Source of the DNA: Escherichia phage EO1
Sequence record: OQ223305.1
Reading direction: 5' to 3' (one strand)
DNA length: 64,000 nucleotides
The translations under genes were made by a program, and so were the position numbers. Shown piece after piece: positions 2,017-52,737 of the stretch. Within the stretch, counting starts at the first letter, position 1, and every line of letters begins with the position of its first letter. The notes below the pieces were generated by a model. The model searched no databases, had not been told where the DNA came from, and worked only from the letters and a program-made list of their open reading frames with translations.

Positions 2017-3036
2017 ATGAAAACTCGTTCTCAAATTGAAGATATGGTTCGTAATGCCAGCTATACCCGTAATGTTATGACATTTTTGTGCCAAAATAAT
2101 TTAGACCCTGATAGAGTTAATAGTTCCATTCACTTTAAGTATATGAATAGCAGTGAATGGTTACGTCATTTTAGTAAAGCGGGATATATTACACAAATGA
2201 CTGCTCGTGAGCAGCTCACCGATTTCTGTAAAACTATTGATTATAAAAATCCTCTATTTGTTCAAGGCGTTGGTCAGAGTAAGGTTGATTTATCAACAGG
2301 ATTTTTTAATCCAAATCATTATCGTATTGAATGGAGATTTATTGCTCTATTCCGTAAACAATTAAAGCAAATTTTGTCTACTGCTAGTCGATTAAAAGGT
2401 TCTGACATTAACTTAAAGAACCTGAAATTCGATGGTTATACTCTTCAGATGGAAGTAAGACCATTAAAAGAAAATAATAGAACTGCACGAATTAGCTTTA
2501 AACCTAATACAAAAAATTCTCTTTCAATTTGTGAATGCCTTAAATCACAGTTGACAGAAGCATTTAAGTATATGGATGTTGTTGCCGCTGTTCATTCTAA
2601 GATTTTACCTCATTTTGAGCGAAATTGGGAACATACAACAACGTATGAACTTGATATGATCGTTTCATTTAAATACGATTTTTTGAGAAAGGATGAAGTC
2701 CCGCAAGAGAAAAAGCAGGAAGTACAAGATAACTTAAATTTATCTAATTGCTCATCAAACTATCCTAAATTTTGGATGTATAGCTCAGGTAATGAGGATG
2801 CATGGAAATTCAATAAAGTGAATTTTCTTCCTGTTGAAAATCCGAGTCTTAAACCTGTTGAAAAATGGCACGCGGATGCGATTGAGAAGTCTCTTAAGGC
2901 AGTAGATGATGAACTCGTTAAAGCGACCAATGAAGTGCTAGAAGCTGAAAAGATGCTAGAAAAAGCACAAGAAAAAGTCAAAAATCTTACGAAGCAACGT
3001 TCTAAACTGAACAGTGCACTAAATGCACTGAACTAG
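2017..3036 (+). CDS. hypothetical protein, member 2 of coiled-coil-tailed ORF array (339 aa)
   Basis: ATG 2017 follows TAAGGA; C-terminus LVKATNEVLEAEKMLEKAQEKVKNLTKQRSKLNSALNALN is strongly heptad/charged. Confidence 0.6.
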   Translation: MKTRSQIEDMVRNASYTRNVMTFLCQNNLDPDRVNSSIHFKYMNSSEWLRHFSKAGYITQMTAREQLTDFCKTIDYKNPLFVQGVGQSKVDLSTGFFNPNHYRIEWRFIALFRKQLKQILSTASRLKGSDINLKNLKFDGYTLQMEVRPLKENNRTARISFKPNTKNSLSICECLKSQLTEAFKYMDVVAAVHSKILPHFERNWEHTTTYELDMIVSFKYDFLRKDEVPQEKKQEVQDNLNLSNCSSNYPKFWMYSSGNEDAWKFNKVNFLPVENPSLKPVEKWHADAIEKSLKAVDDELVKATNEVLEAEKMLEKAQEKVKNLTKQRSKLNSALNALN

Positions 3037-3065
3037 TTTACTTTGCCACAAGGATGTGGTATAAT
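3036..3065 (+). promoter_or_regulatory. early promoter cassette (GTTTAC, CCACAAGGATGTGG hairpin, TATAAT)
   Basis: GTTTAC 3036-3041, inverted repeat CCACA/TGTGG 3046-3059, TATAAT 3060-3065; 18-bp spacer; drives ORF at 3094. Confidence 0.65.
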
Positions 3066-3093
3066 GTTCTTACTTTCTACTGAGGAGATTAAT

Positions 3094-4095
3094 ATGACTC
3101 GTAACGAATATATCAAATCATTCAATAGAGTTATTGATGATAAAGTTAAACCCATGTCTAGTCAGAACGCTGTTCTTTCTATTATCAATCAATGGCTCAG
3201 CAGTATTGATGCAAGTATTGTTTCTTCCAGTAAATTTATTCATGAAGTTCGTGAAATTTCTAGCCGTGTAGATAAAGATGATATTAAGATAATCTTTAAA
3301 GGGTCTCGTCTTCTTTCATATTTAGTTAATCGGGATATTCTTGGTAATTTTGGGAAAGAAATTAAACGAACCAAAGATGTAATAGGATACAATTGGTTCG
3401 GTGATGTTAATTCTTATCATCTTAATAATAAAGAAGACCCTGAGAATATTTTTACTCGTCGTTGGATTAGTAATTTCAGACTTTTTAAAGGACAAATTCT
3501 AAAATCAGCTTCTAAATTATGTTATGGCGATTATCGTCAAATTCATCCTTTGGCTTCTGATATGATTATCGTAAAAGAATATGAGCTTGATAAAAATAAA
3601 GTAGCTATTTTTGTGAATTACGAATTTTTTACACCAAACGCTAACCAAAAGAATATTAATAAATTTTTCTCAATTGCTAGCACTATAACTCATCAATTAG
3701 AGACGGCTTTGGATTGTATGGAAACTGTAAAAAGTATTCATACTTATCCTTTTAAGAATATGTGTGGTTGGGAAGGATACAAAATTGTAGTTAGTCTTCG
3801 TGAAGTGAAATGTGCTTATTCACCTACTGATAAAGAAATTTATCAACAAAAATGTGAGGAAATTGTGAATACTCCTAAAGAAGAAACTACCCTTGAGGAA
3901 CTAATGGAATGTCTTGATGATTCACCTGAACCGGTAGAAATTCGTCCAGAAGTTATTGCATTAGAAAAAGCTTATAAAGAAGTTCTAGAAATTTCTAATA
4001 AAGCGCAGAAAGAATACGAGCAGGCTAAAAAGATTTGGGAAGAATCTGTCAATCGCTTGGATCGTCTTGAACAAGCTTTACAGTTAATTAAGTAA
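3094..4095 (+). CDS. hypothetical protein, member 3 of coiled-coil-tailed ORF array (333 aa)
   Basis: ATG 3094 follows GAGGAG and its own promoter cassette (3036-3065); the six-frame start at 3043 is a TTG inside the promoter. C-terminal coiled coil (EKAYKEVLEISNKAQKEYEQAKKIWEESVNRLDRLEQALQLIK). Confidence 0.6.
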   Translation: MTRNEYIKSFNRVIDDKVKPMSSQNAVLSIINQWLSSIDASIVSSSKFIHEVREISSRVDKDDIKIIFKGSRLLSYLVNRDILGNFGKEIKRTKDVIGYNWFGDVNSYHLNNKEDPENIFTRRWISNFRLFKGQILKSASKLCYGDYRQIHPLASDMIIVKEYELDKNKVAIFVNYEFFTPNANQKNINKFFSIASTITHQLETALDCMETVKSIHTYPFKNMCGWEGYKIVVSLREVKCAYSPTDKEIYQQKCEEIVNTPKEETTLEELMECLDDSPEPVEIRPEVIALEKAYKEVLEISNKAQKEYEQAKKIWEESVNRLDRLEQALQLIK

Positions 4096-30075: not shown

Positions 30076-31503
30076 GTGGTAGAAATTATTCTTTCTCATC
30101 TCATATTTGATCAAGCTTATTTTTCAAAAGTTTGGCCATATATGGATTCAGAATATTTTGAAAGTGGTCCAGCTAAAAATACATTCAAATTAATTAAATC
30201 TCATGTTAATGAGTACCATAGCGTTCCATCTATTAATGCGTTAAATGTTGCATTAGAAAATAGTTCATTTACTGAAACAGAATATTCTGGTGTAAAAACA
30301 CTTATTTCAAAACTGGCTGATTCTCCAGAAGACCACAGCTGGTTAGTAAAAGAAACAGAAAAATATGTTCAGCAAAGGGCGATGTTTAACGCCACATCTA
30401 AAATAATTGAAATTCAAACTAATGCTGAGCTTCCTCCAGAAAAACGAAATAAGAAAATGCCAGATGTTGGTGCTATTCCTGACATCATGCGACAAGCATT
30501 ATCAATTTCATTTGATAGTTATGTTGGTCATGATTGGATGGATGACTACGAAGCACGTTGGCTATCTTATATGAATAAAGCTCGTAAGGTTCCATTTAGA
30601 CTCAAAATTCTAAATAAAATTACTAAAGGCGGAGCTGAGACTGGAACACTGAACGTTTTAATGGCTGGCGTTAACGTTGGTAAATCATTAGGACTTTGTT
30701 CATTAGCAGCAGATTATTTGCAGCTTGGTCATAACGTTCTTTATATCTCCATGGAAATGGCAGAAGAAGTCTGTGCTAAACGTATTGATGCTAATATGCT
30801 CGATGTTTCTCTTGATGACATTGATGATGGACATATTTCTTATGCCGAGTATAAAGGAAAAATGGAAAAATGGCGTGAGAAATCTACTCTCGGTCGTTTA
30901 ATCGTTAAACAGTACCCTACTGGTGGAGCAGACGCTAATACATTCAGGTCTCTCTTGAATGAATTGAAGCTCAAAAAGAATTTTGTTCCAACAATCATTA
31001 TTGTCGACTATCTAGGTATTTGTAAATCTTGCCGCATTAGAGTTTACTCAGAAAATAGTTACACAACTGTTAAAGCCATTGCAGAGGAATTGCGTGCTCT
31101 TGCTGTTGAAACCGAAACTGTTCTTTGGACTGCAGCACAGGTTGGTAAGCAAGCTTGGGATTCTTCTGATGTTAACATGAGCGATATTGCAGAATCTGCC
31201 GGTCTTCCAGCAACAGCCGATTTTATGCTTGCGGTCATTGAAACCGAGGAGTTAGCAGCTGCTGAACAACAACTAATTAAGCAAATCAAATCACGATATG
31301 GTGATAAGAATAAATGGAATAAGTTTTTGATGGGTGTTCAAAAGGGAAATCAGAAATGGGTAGAAATTGAACAAGATTCTACTCCAACTGAAGTGAGTGA
31401 AGTAGCAGGTTCACAACAGATTCAGGCTGAACAGAATCGCTATCAAAGAAATGAATCTACTCGAGCTCAGTTAGATGCTTTGGCAAATGAATTAAAATTT
31501 TAG
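30076..31503 (+). CDS. 41: replicative DNA helicase gp41 (DnaB-like), 475 aa
   Basis: 475 aa, GTG start; Walker A GVNVGKS; matches T4 gp41 as recalled. Confidence 0.9.
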   Translation: MVEIILSHLIFDQAYFSKVWPYMDSEYFESGPAKNTFKLIKSHVNEYHSVPSINALNVALENSSFTETEYSGVKTLISKLADSPEDHSWLVKETEKYVQQRAMFNATSKIIEIQTNAELPPEKRNKKMPDVGAIPDIMRQALSISFDSYVGHDWMDDYEARWLSYMNKARKVPFRLKILNKITKGGAETGTLNVLMAGVNVGKSLGLCSLAADYLQLGHNVLYISMEMAEEVCAKRIDANMLDVSLDDIDDGHISYAEYKGKMEKWREKSTLGRLIVKQYPTGGADANTFRSLLNELKLKKNFVPTIIIVDYLGICKSCRIRVYSENSYTTVKAIAEELRALAVETETVLWTAAQVGKQAWDSSDVNMSDIAESAGLPATADFMLAVIETEELAAAEQQLIKQIKSRYGDKNKWNKFLMGVQKGNQKWVEIEQDSTPTEVSEVAGSQQIQAEQNRYQRNESTRAQLDALANELKF

Positions 31504-31537
31504 TTTACAAGCTGACGAGACTATGGTATAGTAGTCT
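31503..31537 (+). promoter_or_regulatory. early promoter for dmd with -10 inside a stem-loop
   Basis: GTTTAC 31503-31508; TATAGT 31527-31532 lies between inverted repeat AGACTA (31518-31523) / TAGTCT (31532-31537). Confidence 0.6.
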
Positions 31538-31561
31538 TGTTGGTTAAATGAGGAGATTGTT

Positions 31562-31744
31562 ATGGAATTGGTAAAGGTAGTTTTTATGGGGTGGTTTAAG
31601 AATGAAAGCATGTTTACTAAAGAAACCACAATGATGAAAGATGACGTTCAATGGGCTACTACTCAGTATGCTGAAGTTAATAAAGCATTAGTTAAAGCTT
31701 TCATTGATGACAAGAAAGTATGTGAAGTGGATTGCCGAGGATAA
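31562..31744 (+). CDS. dmd: Dmd (discriminator of mRNA degradation; antitoxin against RnlA/LsoA), 60 aa
   Basis: 60 aa, first gene after 41 behind its own early promoter, as for T4 dmd (61.5). Confidence 0.65.
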   Translation: MELVKVVFMGWFKNESMFTKETTMMKDDVQWATTQYAEVNKALVKAFIDDKKVCEVDCRG

Positions 31745-31745
31745 T

Positions 31746-32003
31746 ATGCATATTGTTTTATTTAAACCTACTCCGTATAACGTTAGGAAAAATACTCAAT
31801 TCAAAGCACTTATTGCAGATACGTGGGAATTGGTGTTAGATATTCCATCAGAAGAAAGTCCTCCATTTGGTCGAGTGGAATTTATTAAGTTTGCTGTGCG
31901 CCCTACGAAGCGACAGATTCGTCAGTGTAAAAGGTATTTTCGTAAGATTGTTAAGCTAGAGAAACAGTTTGTAACATGTGATTATGCAGAAGTTTTAAAA
32001 TAA
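31746..32003 (+). CDS. hypothetical basic protein (85 aa), 61.4 position; possible TifA-like anti-toxin factor
   Basis: ATG 31746 overlaps the dmd stop; basic C-terminal half. Functional call is positional only. Confidence 0.4.
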   Translation: MHIVLFKPTPYNVRKNTQFKALIADTWELVLDIPSEESPPFGRVEFIKFAVRPTKRQIRQCKRYFRKIVKLEKQFVTCDYAEVLK

Positions 32004-32061
32004 TTGTTTACTTTTATTGGAAATTGAGATACTATAAACATAAACTACTGAGGAGATTATC

Positions 32062-32355
32062 ATGAAAAAATTTATCTTTGCTGCAATTTTTGCTTTATCT
32101 TCTTGTGCTGCTCAGCCTGCTATGGCAGGTTATGATAAAGATTTGTGTGAGTGGTCTATGACTGCAGACCAGACTGAGGTTGAAACTCAAATTGAAGCAG
32201 ATATTATGAATATCGTTGAGCGTGATCGTCCTGAAATGAAAGCTGAGGTGCAAAAACAACTTAAGTCTGGTGGTGTAATGCAGTATAATTATGTTCTGTA
32301 TTGCGATAAAAACTTTAATAATAAAAATATCATCGCTGAAGTGGTAGGTGAATAA
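32062..32355 (+). CDS. sp: Spackle (periplasmic superinfection-exclusion protein), 97 aa
   Basis: 97 aa with N-terminal signal peptide MKKFIFAAIFALSSCAAQPAMA; size and position match T4 sp (61.3). Confidence 0.6.
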   Translation: MKKFIFAAIFALSSCAAQPAMAGYDKDLCEWSMTADQTEVETQIEADIMNIVERDRPEMKAEVQKQLKSGGVMQYNYVLYCDKNFNNKNIIAEVVGE

Positions 32356-32981
32356 TGCTCTATCAAATGCACAAGTGTAAAGATACATACAAATATAAAG
32401 GTGCCCAGTGTTATATCATTAATCGTGAAAACGCGGGTCCGGGTCATTCACATCAATCACGGTTTGTATTCGTTAAAAACAATGAAATTATAGCAGTTGC
32501 TAATTATATGCTTGTGACTAATGATGTTAATCCGGTGCCTTTTACATATTATAATCTAATGGATTTGGCGTACGATTATAATTGGTTTAATCATGATAAT
32601 TTGGCTCATATTGAAGGCGTAGGATTTGACATCTCTTATTCTAGTTACTCGTTATGTCCTATAAGCAGAGCTCATAAAGAGCCTGAATATTTTTCATTTC
32701 GTCGGCGTGTAGATTTTAAACACAGCACAGAGTATGTCGGTGGAATCTTTGTTAAAGATGATCGAATTACTCGCATTATTTATCCTTTGGGCTGTGGTCA
32801 AAAAGATATTGATGTTGATTTAGACTTTACTGAAAACATCATTAATCATATTGCTTCTGTGTATTTTGATATTGATCACAAAATTGTAATATGTGGATAT
32901 GAATTACCATCAGAAAAACAGTCTAAAGTAGATGTTTCTATTGATGACCAAATTTTTAATGCTTTTATGAATAGAGGTTAA
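32355..32981 (+). CDS. hypothetical protein (208 aa), gp61.2 position (AdfA-like anti-DarT candidate)
   Basis: ATG overlaps the sp stop; 208 aa; positional equivalent of T4 61.2. Confidence 0.45.
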   Translation: MLYQMHKCKDTYKYKGAQCYIINRENAGPGHSHQSRFVFVKNNEIIAVANYMLVTNDVNPVPFTYYNLMDLAYDYNWFNHDNLAHIEGVGFDISYSSYSLCPISRAHKEPEYFSFRRRVDFKHSTEYVGGIFVKDDRITRIIYPLGCGQKDIDVDLDFTENIINHIASVYFDIDHKIVICGYELPSEKQSKVDVSIDDQIFNAFMNRG

Positions 32982-33149: not shown

Positions 33150-34178
33150 ATGTCATCAATACCTTGGATTGATAATGAGTTTGCATACCGTGCATTGGCT
33201 CATTTACCTAAATTCGCACAAGTAAATAATAGTTCAACTTTTAAATTACGGTTTAGATGTCCTGTTTGTGGAGATTCAAAAACCGACCAAAATAAAGCCC
33301 GTGGATGGTATTATGGCGATAATAATGAAGGAAATATTCATTGTTATAATTGCAACTATCATGCACCAATCGGAATATATTTAAAGGAGTTTGAACCCGA
33401 TTTATATCGTGAGTATATCTTTGAAATAAGAAAAGAAAAAGGTAAAAGTCGTCCAGTAGAAAAACCTAAAGAACTTCCTAAACAACCTGAGAAGAAAATA
33501 ATTAAATCTCTTCCGTCATGTATTAGATTAGATAAACTGGCGGAAGACCATCCAATTATAAAATATGTAAAAGCTCGTTGTATTCCAAAGGATAAATGGA
33601 AATATCTTTGGTTTACAACCGAATGGCCTAAATTAGTTAATAGCATAGCACCGGGAACATACAAAAAGGAAATTTCTGAGCCTCGTCTTGTTATTCCAAT
33701 TTATAATGCTAATGGAAAAGCTGAGTCTTTTCAAGGACGTGCATTAAAGAAAGATGCTCCTCAAAAATATATCACCATTAAAGCTTATCCTGAGGCAACA
33801 AAAATTTACGGTGTTGAACGAGTTAAAGATGGCGATGTATATGTTCTAGAAGGACCTATAGATTCACTTTTTATTGAAAATGGTATAGCTATTACGGGTG
33901 GTCAATTAGACCTAGAAGTTGTTCCATTTAAAGATAGGCGTGTGTGGGTCTTAGATAATGAACCTCGTCATCCTGACACTATTAAGCGAATGACTAAATT
34001 AGTTGATGCAGGAGAAAGGGTTATGTTTTGGGATAAATCTCCCTGGAAATCAAAAGATGTTAATGATATGATTAGAAAGGAAGGTGCAACCCCTGAACAA
34101 ATTATGGAATATATGAAAAATAATATTGCCCAGGGATTGATGGCTAAAATGCGGCTATCTAAATATGCTAAGATTTAA
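33150..34178 (+). CDS. 61: DNA primase gp61 (342 aa)
   Basis: 342 aa; N-terminal zinc-binding cysteines (CPVCGDS...CYNC) and TOPRIM region. Confidence 0.9.
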   Translation: MSSIPWIDNEFAYRALAHLPKFAQVNNSSTFKLRFRCPVCGDSKTDQNKARGWYYGDNNEGNIHCYNCNYHAPIGIYLKEFEPDLYREYIFEIRKEKGKSRPVEKPKELPKQPEKKIIKSLPSCIRLDKLAEDHPIIKYVKARCIPKDKWKYLWFTTEWPKLVNSIAPGTYKKEISEPRLVIPIYNANGKAESFQGRALKKDAPQKYITIKAYPEATKIYGVERVKDGDVYVLEGPIDSLFIENGIAITGGQLDLEVVPFKDRRVWVLDNEPRHPDTIKRMTKLVDAGERVMFWDKSPWKSKDVNDMIRKEGATPEQIMEYMKNNIAQGLMAKMRLSKYAKI

Positions 34179-34375
34179 ATTAACCCAACTAAAGCAAATG
34201 CTAAATCTACAAATGTATCAAGAGTAACTACTGGAATATTAATACCATGCGCAATTGCAACAGGTGATAGAATAAAGTTCCAGAGTAAAATTCCTACCAT
34301 AGCAGAAATAGTAAAAGCTATACGTTTTTTATTACCTTTTATGGCATTAACAAGTGCCATTAATTTTTGTACCAT
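34175..34375 (-). CDS. hypothetical small membrane protein on the opposite strand (66 aa)
   Basis: Minus-strand ORF with strong SD (GGAGG, 4 nt spacer) and T4-like codon usage; two hydrophobic segments; stop overlaps the gene 61 stop. Confidence 0.4.
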   Translation of the reverse strand: MVQKLMALVNAIKGNKKRIAFTISAMVGILLWNFILSPVAIAHGINIPVVTLDTFVDLAFALVGLI

Positions 34376-34448: not shown

Positions 34449-34967
34449 ATGCCACATTTCAACGAATGTAGTCAACTGATCGAAGGCGCTGATAAAGCTC
34501 AAAATGAATATTGGGATATTCTCGGTGATGAAAAAGACCCGCTGCAGGTAATGCTTGACATGCAGAAATCTCTGCAAATTCGTTTAGCTAAAGATAAACC
34601 TGAATATAATCGTCATCCTGATGACTTGGCTACTGCCGGTGAAGTTGTTGATTGGTTGCGTAATCAGAAAGATTATATTGACGATGAATTCCGTGAACTT
34701 CTGACTTCTCTTGGTGGTATGAGTAATGGTGAAAAAGACGCATCTGCTGTATGGAAACCTTGGAAGTCGCAGCATGGTGAGCGTCGTGAAACTCTGATTA
34801 CTGATTTGTCTCCGCAAGACCAGTTAGAAATTAAATTTGAAATGATTGATATTCTTCATTTCGTTCTGAATATGTTCCAGGGTCTTGGTCTTACAGCTGA
34901 AGAAATCTTTAAACTTTATTACCTGAAAAATGCTGAAAATTTCGCACGTCAGGACCGAGGTTATTAA
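34449..34967 (+). CDS. 56: dCTPase/dUTPase gp56 (MazG-like), 172 aa
   Basis: 172 aa; position after 61 and a MotA-box promoter upstream. Confidence 0.7.
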   Translation: MPHFNECSQLIEGADKAQNEYWDILGDEKDPLQVMLDMQKSLQIRLAKDKPEYNRHPDDLATAGEVVDWLRNQKDYIDDEFRELLTSLGGMSNGEKDASAVWKPWKSQHGERRETLITDLSPQDQLEIKFEMIDILHFVLNMFQGLGLTAEEIFKLYYLKNAENFARQDRGY

Positions 34968-42715: not shown

Positions 42716-42745
42716 GTTTACTTCCTCGGTTAGTTGTGGTATTAT
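42716..42745 (+). promoter_or_regulatory. early promoter (GTTTAC ... GTGGTATTAT)
   Basis: GTTTAC 42716-42721, TATTAT 42740-42745. Confidence 0.6.
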
Positions 42746-42772
42746 AACACCATAGCTACTGAGGATAATAAA

Positions 42773-43818: not shown

Positions 43819-43853
43819 GTTTACAAACTCTTGGGACCAGAGTATAATGGTCC
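43819..43853 (+). promoter_or_regulatory. early promoter with TATAAT in a stem-loop
   Basis: GTTTAC 43819-43824; TATAAT 43843-43848 bracketed by inverted repeat GGACCA (43834-43839) / TGGTCC (43848-43853). Confidence 0.65.
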
Positions 43854-43892
43854 TGTGGAGTATAAAATCTTTTTAACAAGTGAGAGATAACT

Positions 43893-46305: not shown

Positions 46306-48123
46306 ATGATTAAGAATGAAATTAAAATTCTGAGCGATATTGAACATATCAAAAAGCGTAGTGGCATGTACATTGGCTCTTCTGCTAATGAAATGCATGA
46401 GCGCTTTCTGTTTGGTAAATGGGAAAGTGTTCAGTATGTACCTGGTCTTGTTAAGCTTATTGATGAAATTATCGATAACTCAGTCGATGAAGGTATTCGT
46501 ACTAAGTTTAAATTCGCGAATAAAATTAATGTTACCATTAAAAATAATCAGGTAACAGTTGAAGATAACGGTCGTGGTATTCCACAAGCGATGGTTAAAA
46601 CACCTACCGGTGAAGAAATTCCTGGTCCAGTTGCTGCTTGGACTATTCCAAAAGCGGGTGGTAACTTTGGTGATGATAAAGAACGTGTCACCGGTGGTAT
46701 GAATGGTGTTGGTTCTAGTTTAACTAACATTTTTTCTGTGATGTTTGTCGGTGAAACTGGCGATGGTCAAAATAATATTGTAGTTCGTTGTTCAAATGGT
46801 ATGGAAAATAAATCCTGGGAAACTATTCCTGGAAAATGGAAAGGAACTCGTGTTACTTTCATTCCTGATTTTATGTCATTTGAAACTAATGAGCTGTCCC
46901 AGGTTTATCTTGACATTACACTGGATCGTCTCCAGACACTTGCTGTCGTTTATCCTGATATTCAATTTACCTTTAATGGTAAAAAGGTTCAGGGCAATTT
47001 TAAGAAATATGCACGACAGTATGATGAACATGCTATCGTTCAAGAACAAGAAAATTGTTCTATTGCGGTTGGTCGTTCACCGGATGGATTTCGTCAATTA
47101 ACTTACGTGAATAACATTCACACTAAGAATGGTGGTCATCACATTGATTGTGTTATGGATGATATTTGTGAAGACCTTATTCCACAAATCAAACGTAAAT
47201 TCAAAATTGATGTAACTAAAGCACGCGTTAAAGAATGTTTGACTATCGTTATGTTTGTTCGTGATATGAAAAACATGCGATTTGATTCTCAAACTAAAGA
47301 GCGTTTGACTTCTCCATTTGGCGAAATTCGTAGTCATATTCAACTTGATGCTAAAAAGATTTCACGCGCTATTCTAAATAATGAAGCAATTTTAATGCCG
47401 ATTATTGAAGCTGCGTTGGCTCGTAAATTGGCGGCAGAAAAAGCAGCAGAAACTAAAGCAGCTAAAAAGGCTTCTAAAGCTAAGGTTCATAAACATATCA
47501 AAGCGAATCTCTGTGGTAAAGATGCTGACACTACTCTTTTCTTGACTGAGGGTGATTCTGCTATCGGATATCTTATTGATGTTCGTGATAAAGAACTTCA
47601 TGGTGGTTATCCATTGCGTGGTAAAGTTCTCAACAGTTGGGGTATGTCATATGCTGATATGCTTAAAAACAAAGAACTATTTGATATTTGCGCAATCACT
47701 GGATTAGTTCTTGGTGAAAAAGCTGAAAACTTGAATTATCATAATATTGCTATTATGACCGATGCTGACCATGATGGTTTAGGAAGCATTTATCCTTCTC
47801 TGCTCGGATTTTTTAGTAATTGGCCAGAATTGTTTGAGCAAGGACGAATTCGCTTTGTCAAAACTCCTGTAATCATCGCTCAGGTCGGTAAAAAACAAGA
47901 ATGGTTTTATACAGTCGCTGAATATGAGAGTGCTAAAGATGCTCTACCTAAACATAGCATCCGTTATATTAAAGGACTTGGCTCTTTGGAAAAATCTGAA
48001 TATCGTGAGATGATTCAAAATCCAGTATATGATGTTGTTAAACTTCCTGAGAACTGGAAAGAGCTTTTTGAAATGCTCATGGGAGATAATGCTGACCTTC
48101 GTAAAGAATGGATGAGCCAGTAG
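46306..48123 (+). CDS. 39: DNA topoisomerase II large (ATPase) subunit gp39, uninterrupted 605-aa form
   Basis: GHKL ATPase motifs (IDNSVDEG, GRGIP) and TOPRIM region (LTEGDSA) in one ORF; 605 aa, i.e. not split into 39 + 60. Confidence 0.9.
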   Translation: MIKNEIKILSDIEHIKKRSGMYIGSSANEMHERFLFGKWESVQYVPGLVKLIDEIIDNSVDEGIRTKFKFANKINVTIKNNQVTVEDNGRGIPQAMVKTPTGEEIPGPVAAWTIPKAGGNFGDDKERVTGGMNGVGSSLTNIFSVMFVGETGDGQNNIVVRCSNGMENKSWETIPGKWKGTRVTFIPDFMSFETNELSQVYLDITLDRLQTLAVVYPDIQFTFNGKKVQGNFKKYARQYDEHAIVQEQENCSIAVGRSPDGFRQLTYVNNIHTKNGGHHIDCVMDDICEDLIPQIKRKFKIDVTKARVKECLTIVMFVRDMKNMRFDSQTKERLTSPFGEIRSHIQLDAKKISRAILNNEAILMPIIEAALARKLAAEKAAETKAAKKASKAKVHKHIKANLCGKDADTTLFLTEGDSAIGYLIDVRDKELHGGYPLRGKVLNSWGMSYADMLKNKELFDICAITGLVLGEKAENLNYHNIAIMTDADHDGLGSIYPSLLGFFSNWPELFEQGRIRFVKTPVIIAQVGKKQEWFYTVAEYESAKDALPKHSIRYIKGLGSLEKSEYREMIQNPVYDVVKLPENWKELFEMLMGDNADLRKEWMSQ

Positions 48124-48152
48124 TTTACTTTACCACAAGGATGTGGTATAAT
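48123..48152 (+). promoter_or_regulatory. early promoter cassette (second copy of the 3036-3065 type)
   Basis: GTTTAC 48123-48128, CCACAAGGATGTGG 48133-48146, TATAAT 48147-48152; differs from the 3034-3065 copy by one base. Confidence 0.65.
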
Positions 48153-52397: not shown

Positions 52398-52451
52398 GTT
52401 TACATACCACAAGGACCGTGGTACTATACAACTATCAACTACTGATACAGA
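52398..52451 (+). promoter_or_regulatory. chimeric early promoter cassette
   Basis: GTTTAC 52398-52403, CCACAAGGACCGTGG 52407-52421 (second cassette type) fused to the 32-bp core at 52420-52451. Confidence 0.6.
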
Positions 52452-52672: not shown

Positions 52673-52737
52673 AGTTGTTTACAAGACTGTTCCTCTGTGG
52701 TATTATTACCCTATCAACTACGGAGGAACAGAAAATG
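52673..52737 (+). repeat. 65-bp promoter cassette, copy 2
   Basis: AGTTGTTTACAAGACTGTTCCTCTGTGGTA[TTATTACC]CTATCAACTACGGAGGAACAGAAAATG, versus CTATACAA in copy 1. Confidence 0.8.
52677..52731 (+). promoter_or_regulatory. early promoter cassette, duplicate of the 61-125 element
   Basis: GTTTAC 52677-52682; inverted repeat CTGTTCCTC (52687-52695) / GAGGAACAG (52723-52731); -10 block GGTATTATTACC. Confidence 0.65.

Follow-up and report, generated by a model that had tools for sequence, protein, structure and literature searches.

Organization of the 41–61 interval

The interval between the helicase gene 41 and the primase gene 61 of Escherichia phage EO1 is very probably the orthologue of the ‘anti-TA’ (anti-toxin–antitoxin) island of phage T4 together with the spackle gene, organised as two early transcription units. 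It was analysed as part of a 64,000-nucleotide (nt) stretch of record OQ223305.1, referred to here as the window. On the + strand between 28.5 and 35.5 kb, the genes uvsX, 40 and 41 (30076-31503) are followed by five small open reading frames (ORFs) and then by primase 61 (33150-34178). An earlier sequence-only reading had listed the first four of these ORFs between 41 and 61, and their positions and sizes confirm all four, whereas the fifth gene, 61.1, had been omitted. The five genes, with lengths in amino acids (aa), are as follows:

31562-31744, + strand, dmd (61.5), 60 aa
31746-32003, + strand, tifA (61.4), 85 aa, pI 9.83, 17 lysines plus arginines
32062-32355, + strand, sp (61.3), encoding Spackle, 97 aa, N-terminal MKKFIFAAIFALSSCAAQPAMA followed by G
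32355-32981, + strand, adfA (61.2), 208 aa
32983-33147, + strand, 61.1, 54 aa, filling the remainder of the 41–61 interval

The junctions are tight, with TAATATG between dmd and 61.4, TAATG between sp and 61.2 and TAATATG between 61.2 and 61.1. There are only two real gaps, each of 58 nt, located upstream of dmd and upstream of sp, and both end in a GAGGAG Shine-Dalgarno (SD) sequence. Each gene of the cassette thereby has either an SD or a coupled TAATG/TAATATG junction.

The corresponding T4 interval (NC_000866, 19.0-20.6 kb) is the same with regard to genes, lengths, overlaps and flanking genes 41 and 61, and it also contains both early promoters and the hairpin described below. The RefSeq gene order is identical (41-dmd-61.4-sp-61.2-61.1-61), and alignment to this RefSeq region gives a DNA identity of 95.3% across the interval. 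At the protein level, EO1 and T4 differ by 17 amino-acid substitutions in all (Dmd 1, TifA 2, Sp 3, AdfA 9 and 61.1 2). Outside the coding regions, two hairpin positions that are G-U in EO1 are A-U or G-C in T4, and a 2-nt indel follows the -10 element of the sp promoter. By megablast, 539 phage records contain the same DNA, mostly from Tequatrovirus phages of Escherichia, Shigella and Yersinia, with phage Killian as the best record (98.6%); dmd, spackle, helicase and primase are annotations on the matched records. By these comparisons the window belongs to a Tequatrovirus close to T4.

Synonymous codon differences relative to T4 exceed non-synonymous ones in all five genes, with ratios of 15:2 in 61.4, 23:9 in 61.2 and 8:3 in sp. 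Because this holds for every gene, all five can be taken as real, constrained genes under purifying selection. Long ORFs do arise by chance in this AT-rich DNA, as illustrated by a 97-aa antisense ORF at 32095-32388, and in principle the five genes could be such chance frames whose resemblance to T4 is merely positional. That explanation retains practically no probability and is already refuted by the large excess of synonymous changes, by full-length family matches with E-values from 1e-20 to 1e-134 and by the near-identity to the T4 proteins.

The block is already known in T4 and is present in hundreds of sequenced relatives, and the window adds nothing new to it. In T4, the region including 61.2/adfA was described as one that ‘may be an anti-TA island’ (Srikant et al. 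2022). The EO1 block is a textbook case of the clustering of phage anti-toxin genes in a hyperplastic region, for which detailed experimental work in T4 and RB69 already exists. Its value therefore lies chiefly in correct annotation, and for that purpose the positional calls of the sequence-only reading proved trustworthy.

Dmd and TifA

Protein identities were obtained by global alignment with the T4 RefSeq proteins, and all Pfam matches reported are full-length and far above the curated cut-offs, with PHROGs in agreement. The names Dmd, 61.4, Spackle and 61.2 had originally been assigned by position and size; far from revealing no similarity to the T4 proteins, alignment returned 96–98% identity over their full lengths. 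The biochemical activities of all the cassette proteins would, by this degree of orthology, be those of the tested T4 proteins.

Dmd matches PF17587 over its entire length (residues 1-60 on profile positions 1-60) with an E-value of 1.8e-45 and 153.5 bits, against a cut-off of 27, and it also matches PDB entry 5hy3_B, ‘Antitoxin Dmd’ (E = 9.6e-37). It is identical to T4 Dmd at 59/60 positions, the sole difference being I22T. T4 Dmd is a direct inhibitor of RnlA (Srikant et al. 2022) and acts on the RnlA/LsoA endoribonuclease toxins (literature cited in Srikant et al. 2022). The window protein, with its I22T substitution, would likewise be expected to neutralise RnlA/LsoA, presumably by binding and blocking these RNase toxins.

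The adjacent gene 61.4 is tifA (Srikant et al. 2022), and its product matches DUF7279 (PF23945; E = 2.6e-20, 72.5 bits, cut-off 24.5) and PHROG 2375 (5e-38). It is identical to T4 gp61.4 at 83/85 positions, with the substitutions A35S and I83V. The ToxN toxin is inhibited by the 85-aa TifA protein, not by the tifA RNA (Srikant et al. 2022). TifA binds ToxN together with RNA, for which it needs P53, T54 and K55/R56/R59, and the Pro-Thr cap formed by P53 and T54 and the basic C-terminal helix that follows it are needed for both RNA binding and ToxN inhibition (Guegler et al. 2023). P53, T54, K55, R56 and R59 are invariant in an alignment of the window, T4 and RB69 proteins. Potency is set by residue 41, where phenylalanine gives a weak and serine or histidine a strong inhibitor (Guegler et al. 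2023). The window protein has phenylalanine at this position, as in T4, and is therefore not of the strong Ser/His type; this bears on the potency of TifA, not on its family membership. Since the key residues are retained and F41 is present, window TifA should behave like T4 TifA, binding ToxN together with RNA such that the toxin would be trapped in an inactive ribonucleoprotein. The F41 allele further suggests that EO1, like T4, is sensitive to plasmid-borne ToxIN. A sequence search of the PDB with TifA returned no solved relatives.

The tifA gene is translationally coupled to dmd through the TAATATG junction. An alternative TTG start for 61.4 at 31704, which would give a 99-aa protein overlapping dmd, was rejected in favor of the ATG at 31746, because the latter has a GAGGA 5 nt upstream and agrees with the annotation of T4 and with the 85-aa protein used in experiments. 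The dmd-tifA pair amplifies readily through recombination (Srikant et al. 2022). Several distant T4-like loci in our comparison (L027-L031, L042 and L046; L numbers denote compared loci) carry two tifA-like ORFs in their 41–61 interval, one of ~79-98 aa and the other of 73 aa. Here the ToxN-inhibitor family has duplicated or diverged in nature, which recalls the amplification of tifA in the laboratory.

AdfA

AdfA matches PF23813 with an E-value of 9.4e-134 and 443.8 bits, residues 1-208 aligning to profile positions 1-211. It is identical to the T4 protein at 199/208 positions and is 69% identical to that of RB69, and its start codon overlaps the sp stop codon (TAATG). T4-type proteins carry a histidine at the position where R164H in RB69 AdfA creates DarT1 binding. 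In the alignment, His 165 of the window protein (ENIINHIASV) occupies the position of RB69 Arg 164 (ENNINRIASV). EO1 thus has the ‘neutralising-type’ AdfA allele, a residue usable for prediction, and AdfA would be expected to bind DarT-type DNA ADP-ribosyltransferase toxins. The gene is absent from T2. Similar to TifA, AdfA has no solved relatives retrievable by a PDB sequence search.

Some close relatives differ at the 3′ side of this gene. They contain an extra 119-aa ORF between adfA and 61.1, as in locus L005 (9918-10277), and the megablast matches H6-H11, H21 and H23 have ~360 extra bases. The extra ORF of L005 matches the C-terminal part of PF23813 (1.9e-07) and shares the ending ...SIDDQIFNAFMNRG. 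The full-length adfA of this locus is of the RB69 type (72% identical to the window protein) and has an asparagine at the R164/H165 position. In phage Killian (L048, OQ446694), the orthologues of adfA and 61.1 (2456-3082 and 3084-3248) are annotated as ‘putative major capsid protein’ or ‘major capsid domain-containing protein’, and the pSe_SNUABM_01 records share this capsid label; these are annotation errors.

Spackle

Spackle matches the T4_Spackle family PF25676 (E = 2.8e-45, 153.3 bits) and the PDB entries 6x6o (1.1e-60) and 7cn6. Residues 1-22 form a Sec signal peptide that ends in AMA before Gly 23, the N terminus reading MKKFIFAAIFALSSCAAQPAMA and then GYDK, and the mature protein spans G23-E97. 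The 7cn6 chain, which is the mature protein, aligns from residue 23, so that the signal peptide proposed for this ORF from its sequence stands. The protein is identical to T4 Spackle at 94/97 positions; T8A and A13S lie in the signal peptide, and K53E is the sole change in the mature region.

Mature T4 Spackle (Gly23-Glu97) has a C29-C81 disulfide and binds and inhibits the gp5 tail lysozyme, leading to superinfection exclusion, with contacts to gp5 made by S32-A35, Q37, N76 and the C-terminal helices (Shi 2020). Relative to T4, both cysteines (C29 and C81), the lysozyme contacts S32, M33, T34, A35, Q37 and N76 and the C-terminal helix are unchanged. In EO1, Spackle would accordingly be exported to the periplasm and lose its 22-residue signal peptide, and T-even phages that superinfect the cell would have their gp5 tail lysozyme inhibited by it. 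Spackle acts in exclusion between phages and is not properly a counter-defence protein.

Taken over the whole block, the description of the T4 interval as a site of anti-toxin and superinfection functions is borne out by the literature on Dmd/RnlA, TifA/ToxN, AdfA/DarT and Sp/gp5 lysozyme. The label of a counter-defence cassette holds for Dmd, TifA and AdfA by that literature but not for Spackle. For TifA and AdfA of T4, counter-defence is established biochemically and is weak or host-specific in vivo.

Two early transcription units

The regulatory features of the block are:

31503-31532, + strand, early promoter of dmd-tifA, with a GTTTACA -35 region, a 17/18-nt spacer and a TG-extended -10 element TATAGT at 31527-31532
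31510-31545, + strand, 15-bp stem-loop with arms at 31510-31524 and 31531-31545 and loop at 31525-31530
32006-32035, + strand, second early promoter, before sp, GTTTAC-N18-TACTAT, between 61.4 and sp and conserved in T4

In a generic sigma-70 scan, the dmd promoter (TTTACA-17-TATAGT, 31504-31532) scores 10/12 with TG. Its -35 element overlaps the TAG stop codon of gene 41, and the promoter is identical in T4 apart from the stem positions. Both promoters match the T4 early-promoter signature GTTTAC-N18-TAnnnT, which occurs 20 times in the 64-kb window against 3.9 expected, always with identical spacing and in 18/20 cases on the + strand. No significant fold is found at the second promoter (z = +1.1), and it has no stem-loop. 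Scans for MotA-box middle promoters and for late promoters (TATAAATA) found none inside the block.

Experimental work on T4 described an early promoter upstream of dmd, a two-gene dmd-tifA operon and a further promoter located after tifA (Srikant et al. 2022). The sequence-only reading had placed the entire block behind one promoter; this does not hold, given the early motif at 32006-32035 and the published promoter downstream of tifA. The block consists of two early units, dmd-tifA and sp-adfA-61.1. In the first unit, a PeSL-type early promoter (see below) directly adjoins the stop codon of gene 41, and the 15-bp hairpin would be formed by the promoter's spacer and start region. Transcripts of this unit, with a predicted start at ~31539, would encode Dmd and the translationally coupled TifA. 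In the second unit, transcription from the plain early promoter at 32006-32035 would cover sp, adfA and 61.1 and probably extends into the primase gene 61.

Elsewhere in the window, the early promoters at 3036-3065, 48123-48152 and 52398-52427 share a near-identical inverted repeat in their spacers (CCACAAGGATGTGG or CCACAAGGACCGTGG). The same motif recurs in the gene 41-proximal promoters of L021 and L022 and may represent a PeSL subclass with a ‘stem between -35 and -10’.

A stem-loop over the dmd promoter

The -10 element of the dmd promoter (31527-31532) lies in the loop of a stem-loop, as the sequence-only reading had noticed, and extends two bases into its 3′ arm. An 81-nt segment (31495-31575) folds with a minimum free energy of -19.9 kcal/mol (z = -3.75), and 0/200 shuffled sequences fold as well. 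The stem ends at 31545, 5 nt before the SD (31551-31556), and the ribosome-binding site is not sequestered.

The structure is maintained among relatives. Three stem positions differ in close relatives, and the pairing is preserved each time (G-U to A-U or G-C). For more distant phages, 45 IMG/VR loci anchored on gp41 served as the comparison set for the 41–61 interval. In several distant lineages (L014, L016/17, L019/20/44 and L033), an early promoter directly follows the gene 41 stop codon and carries a hairpin of different sequence in the same register. In a gap-free alignment of 10 sequences, 120/120 cells pair and 8/12 pairs are changed on both sides, as against 31-63% pairing when the partners are slid by 1-3 columns; since the loci were picked for showing the hairpin, the percentage paired is inflated, and it is the fixed register and the double changes that are informative. 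In RB69-like and other lineages (L027-L046), terminator and promoter are instead separate at the same junction, with a UUCG-tetraloop terminator first and a GTTTAC promoter after it.

Early promoters fused to stem-loops were described previously as PeSLs (promoter-early stem-loops), which terminate or attenuate transcription and were proposed as sites where recombination shuffles modules within hyperplastic regions; in one of their two commonest layouts the stem overlaps the -10 element, and terminator/attenuator activity was shown by reporter assay for one RB49/phi1 PeSL (Arbiol et al. 2010). The dmd stem-loop fits this published element. It has a strong sigma-70-like early promoter (TAG-TTTACA-17-TATAGT ... 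GAGGAG-N5-ATG) with AT-rich AATTAAAATTT upstream of the -35 element, a stable stem-loop overlapping that promoter at the -10, and a location in a hyperplastic region of variable gene content, beside non-essential genes. It differs in composition, as the stems of PeSLs defined in RB49/phi1 are often GGGG...CCCC, whereas the EO1 stem is A/T- and G-U-rich.

By comparison with the tested PeSLs and with the separate terminators at the same junction in other phages, the hairpin probably terminates or attenuates transcripts that enter from uvsX-40-41, or else stabilises their 3′ ends. The separate terminators support a ‘terminate, then restart’ role for this junction. Read-through RNA from uvsX-40-41 would contain the whole hairpin and could thereby be terminated, attenuated or stabilised. 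Meanwhile, mRNA initiated at the promoter itself would start inside the 3′ arm (at about 31539), lack the 5′ arm and hence be unable to form the hairpin.

Two further early promoters of the window, at 42716-42767 (z = -6.9) and 43819-43870 (z = -4.5), also have strong hairpins around the -10 element, 3-7 nt after an upstream stop codon, and all three hairpin promoters (dmd, 42716 and 43819) lie 0-7 nt past the stop codon of an upstream ORF. At 65-116 and 52677-52728, and likewise in an outer stem of the 42716 promoter, the spacer base-pairs with a downstream SD (GGAGGAA or GAGGA). Such pairing would hide the ribosome-binding site only in read-through transcripts.

Alternative interpretations

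Several observations weigh against reading the interval as a two-unit counterpart of the T4 island with T4-like functions. Orthology is the basis of the functions predicted for EO1. Single-copy tifA of T4 is insufficient against plasmid-borne toxIN, and the F41 retained here is the weak allele. A T4 adfA deletion has no DarTG1 phenotype, even when adfN is lacking as well, and AdfA differs from T4 at 9 positions. With regard to transcription, the second promoter matches the Escherichia coli consensus at just 8/12 positions, below the threshold of the generic sigma-70 scan. The dmd hairpin lacks a clean U-tract (UUGGUUAAAU) and hence is not a canonical intrinsic terminator; a generic terminator scan did not call it, and an Rfam scan of 29.5-35 kb with E-values up to 1 found no RNA family, so the hairpin is not a curated one.

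One alternative is a single operon whose four genes depend solely on the promoter ahead of dmd. The genes lie on one strand in close succession, their junctions overlap or are coupled, and the block contains no terminator-like site; for these reasons, read-through from the dmd promoter into sp likely contributes to expression. As the exclusive arrangement, though, a single operon is quite improbable, since the one sizeable intergenic gap (32004-32061) holds GTTTAC-N18-TACTAT with a strong SD after it, the motif is also conserved in T4, and its family is 5-fold enriched and nearly confined to the early strand. In addition, imm and imm.1 of RB69 are inserted exactly at the 61.4/sp joint, as expected of a module boundary. 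The stem-loop, for its part, might be a cis-regulatory RNA for dmd translation or stability, or else a site acting at the DNA level in recombination or protein binding. Its structure is under selection, T4 uses hairpins that sequester ribosome-binding sites elsewhere, two other early promoters of the window pair their spacer with a downstream GGAGGAA, PeSLs were proposed as recombination sites, and dmd-tifA is readily amplified by recombination. We nevertheless consider this unlikely, because the hairpin leaves the SD free and the predicted promoter-derived mRNA could not form it, while the variation of stem sequences among promoters and phages disfavours a sequence-specific binding protein. 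A terminator or attenuator within a two-unit arrangement remains the preferred interpretation of the upstream element. A somewhat larger, though still minor, share of belief goes to the idea that the proteins are orthologues by sequence but are tuned to other toxin variants, in which case the T4 labels (anti-RnlA, anti-ToxN and anti-DarT1) would misdescribe their role in the natural host. Each TifA homologue is specific to certain ToxN proteins, with residue 41 tuning its strength; T4 AdfA has no measurable role against DarTG1 and was proposed to target another DarT; and AdfA shows the most non-synonymous change in the cassette relative to T4 (9 codons). Against this stand the 96–98% identity to tested T4 proteins, the fact that every residue shown to matter is unchanged, and the finding that T2 and T6 TifA (>96% identity) act like T4 TifA. 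The T4-like assignment is thus retained, bearing in mind that in T4 itself TifA and AdfA are of limited strength in vivo and that their natural targets may differ.

Gene 61.1

The product of 61.1 matches PHROG 1823 (E = 7e-34) and is identical to T4 gp61.1 at 52/54 positions. A Pfam scan of this protein and of its long form (see below) gave no family match, and a literature search on gp61.1 returned only noise. In other T4-like phages, the 54-aa protein aligns to the C-terminal module (MVAGDSGG...) of proteins of ~127-157 aa. This module has an invariant MVAGDSGG..I..G.T.G...P followed by a Lys/Arg-rich tail. In most T4-like loci the gene for the long-form protein immediately precedes the primase gene, even where the 41–61 interval holds nothing else, and 61.1 of the T4 type looks like a truncated remnant of it. 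Examples of the long form are:

L008, 9283-9753
L014, 9494-9958
L021, 8789-9262
L025, 11443-11910
L026, 8428-8811

It was suggested that ‘other genes in this region’ are further toxin inhibitors (Srikant et al. 2022). Either 61.1 might be such an inhibitor or the remnant of a core primase-linked protein, or the AdfA allele, with its 9 substitutions, might neutralise a DarT variant that escapes T4 AdfA; we view this pair of possibilities as improbable, and either would amount to a modest extension of a known system.

Variation of the interval among T4-like phages

The 41–61 interval is hyperplastic. Across the 45 IMG/VR loci, it ranges from 396 bp, with only a 61.1-like gene, to 5.8 kb, and the sets of dmd-, tifA-, sp- and adfA-like genes vary, including the duplicated tifA-like ORFs described above.

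RB69 (NC_004928) provides the clearest contrast with EO1. It has homologues of dmd, 61.4, sp, 61.2 and 61.1 in the same order, but its interval is ~3.7 kb, compared with 1.65 kb in EO1. Its additional genes are two ORFs ahead of dmd, two more after 61.2, and the superinfection-immunity genes imm and imm.1, which lie between 61.4 and sp. RB69 TifA is 56% identical to the window protein and has H41, and its AdfA, at 69% identity, has R164, the non-neutralising allele. Upstream of its promoter, RB69 has a separate UUCG-tetraloop terminator, not the fused hairpin of EO1. In this phage (L002, 5012-5690) the exclusion genes imm and sp are adjacent, and the insertion point corresponds to the second early promoter of EO1.

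Downstream of primase 61, EO1 contains a 66-aa minus-strand ORF (34175-34375), for which a Pfam scan gave no match, and then a dUTPase_2-family ORF (34449-34967) that resembles the gp56 dCTPase. The dam gene, which lies between 56 and 61 in T4, is absent from that position in EO1, as it is in RB69. In phage Killian, an HNH endonuclease follows the 66-aa ORF.

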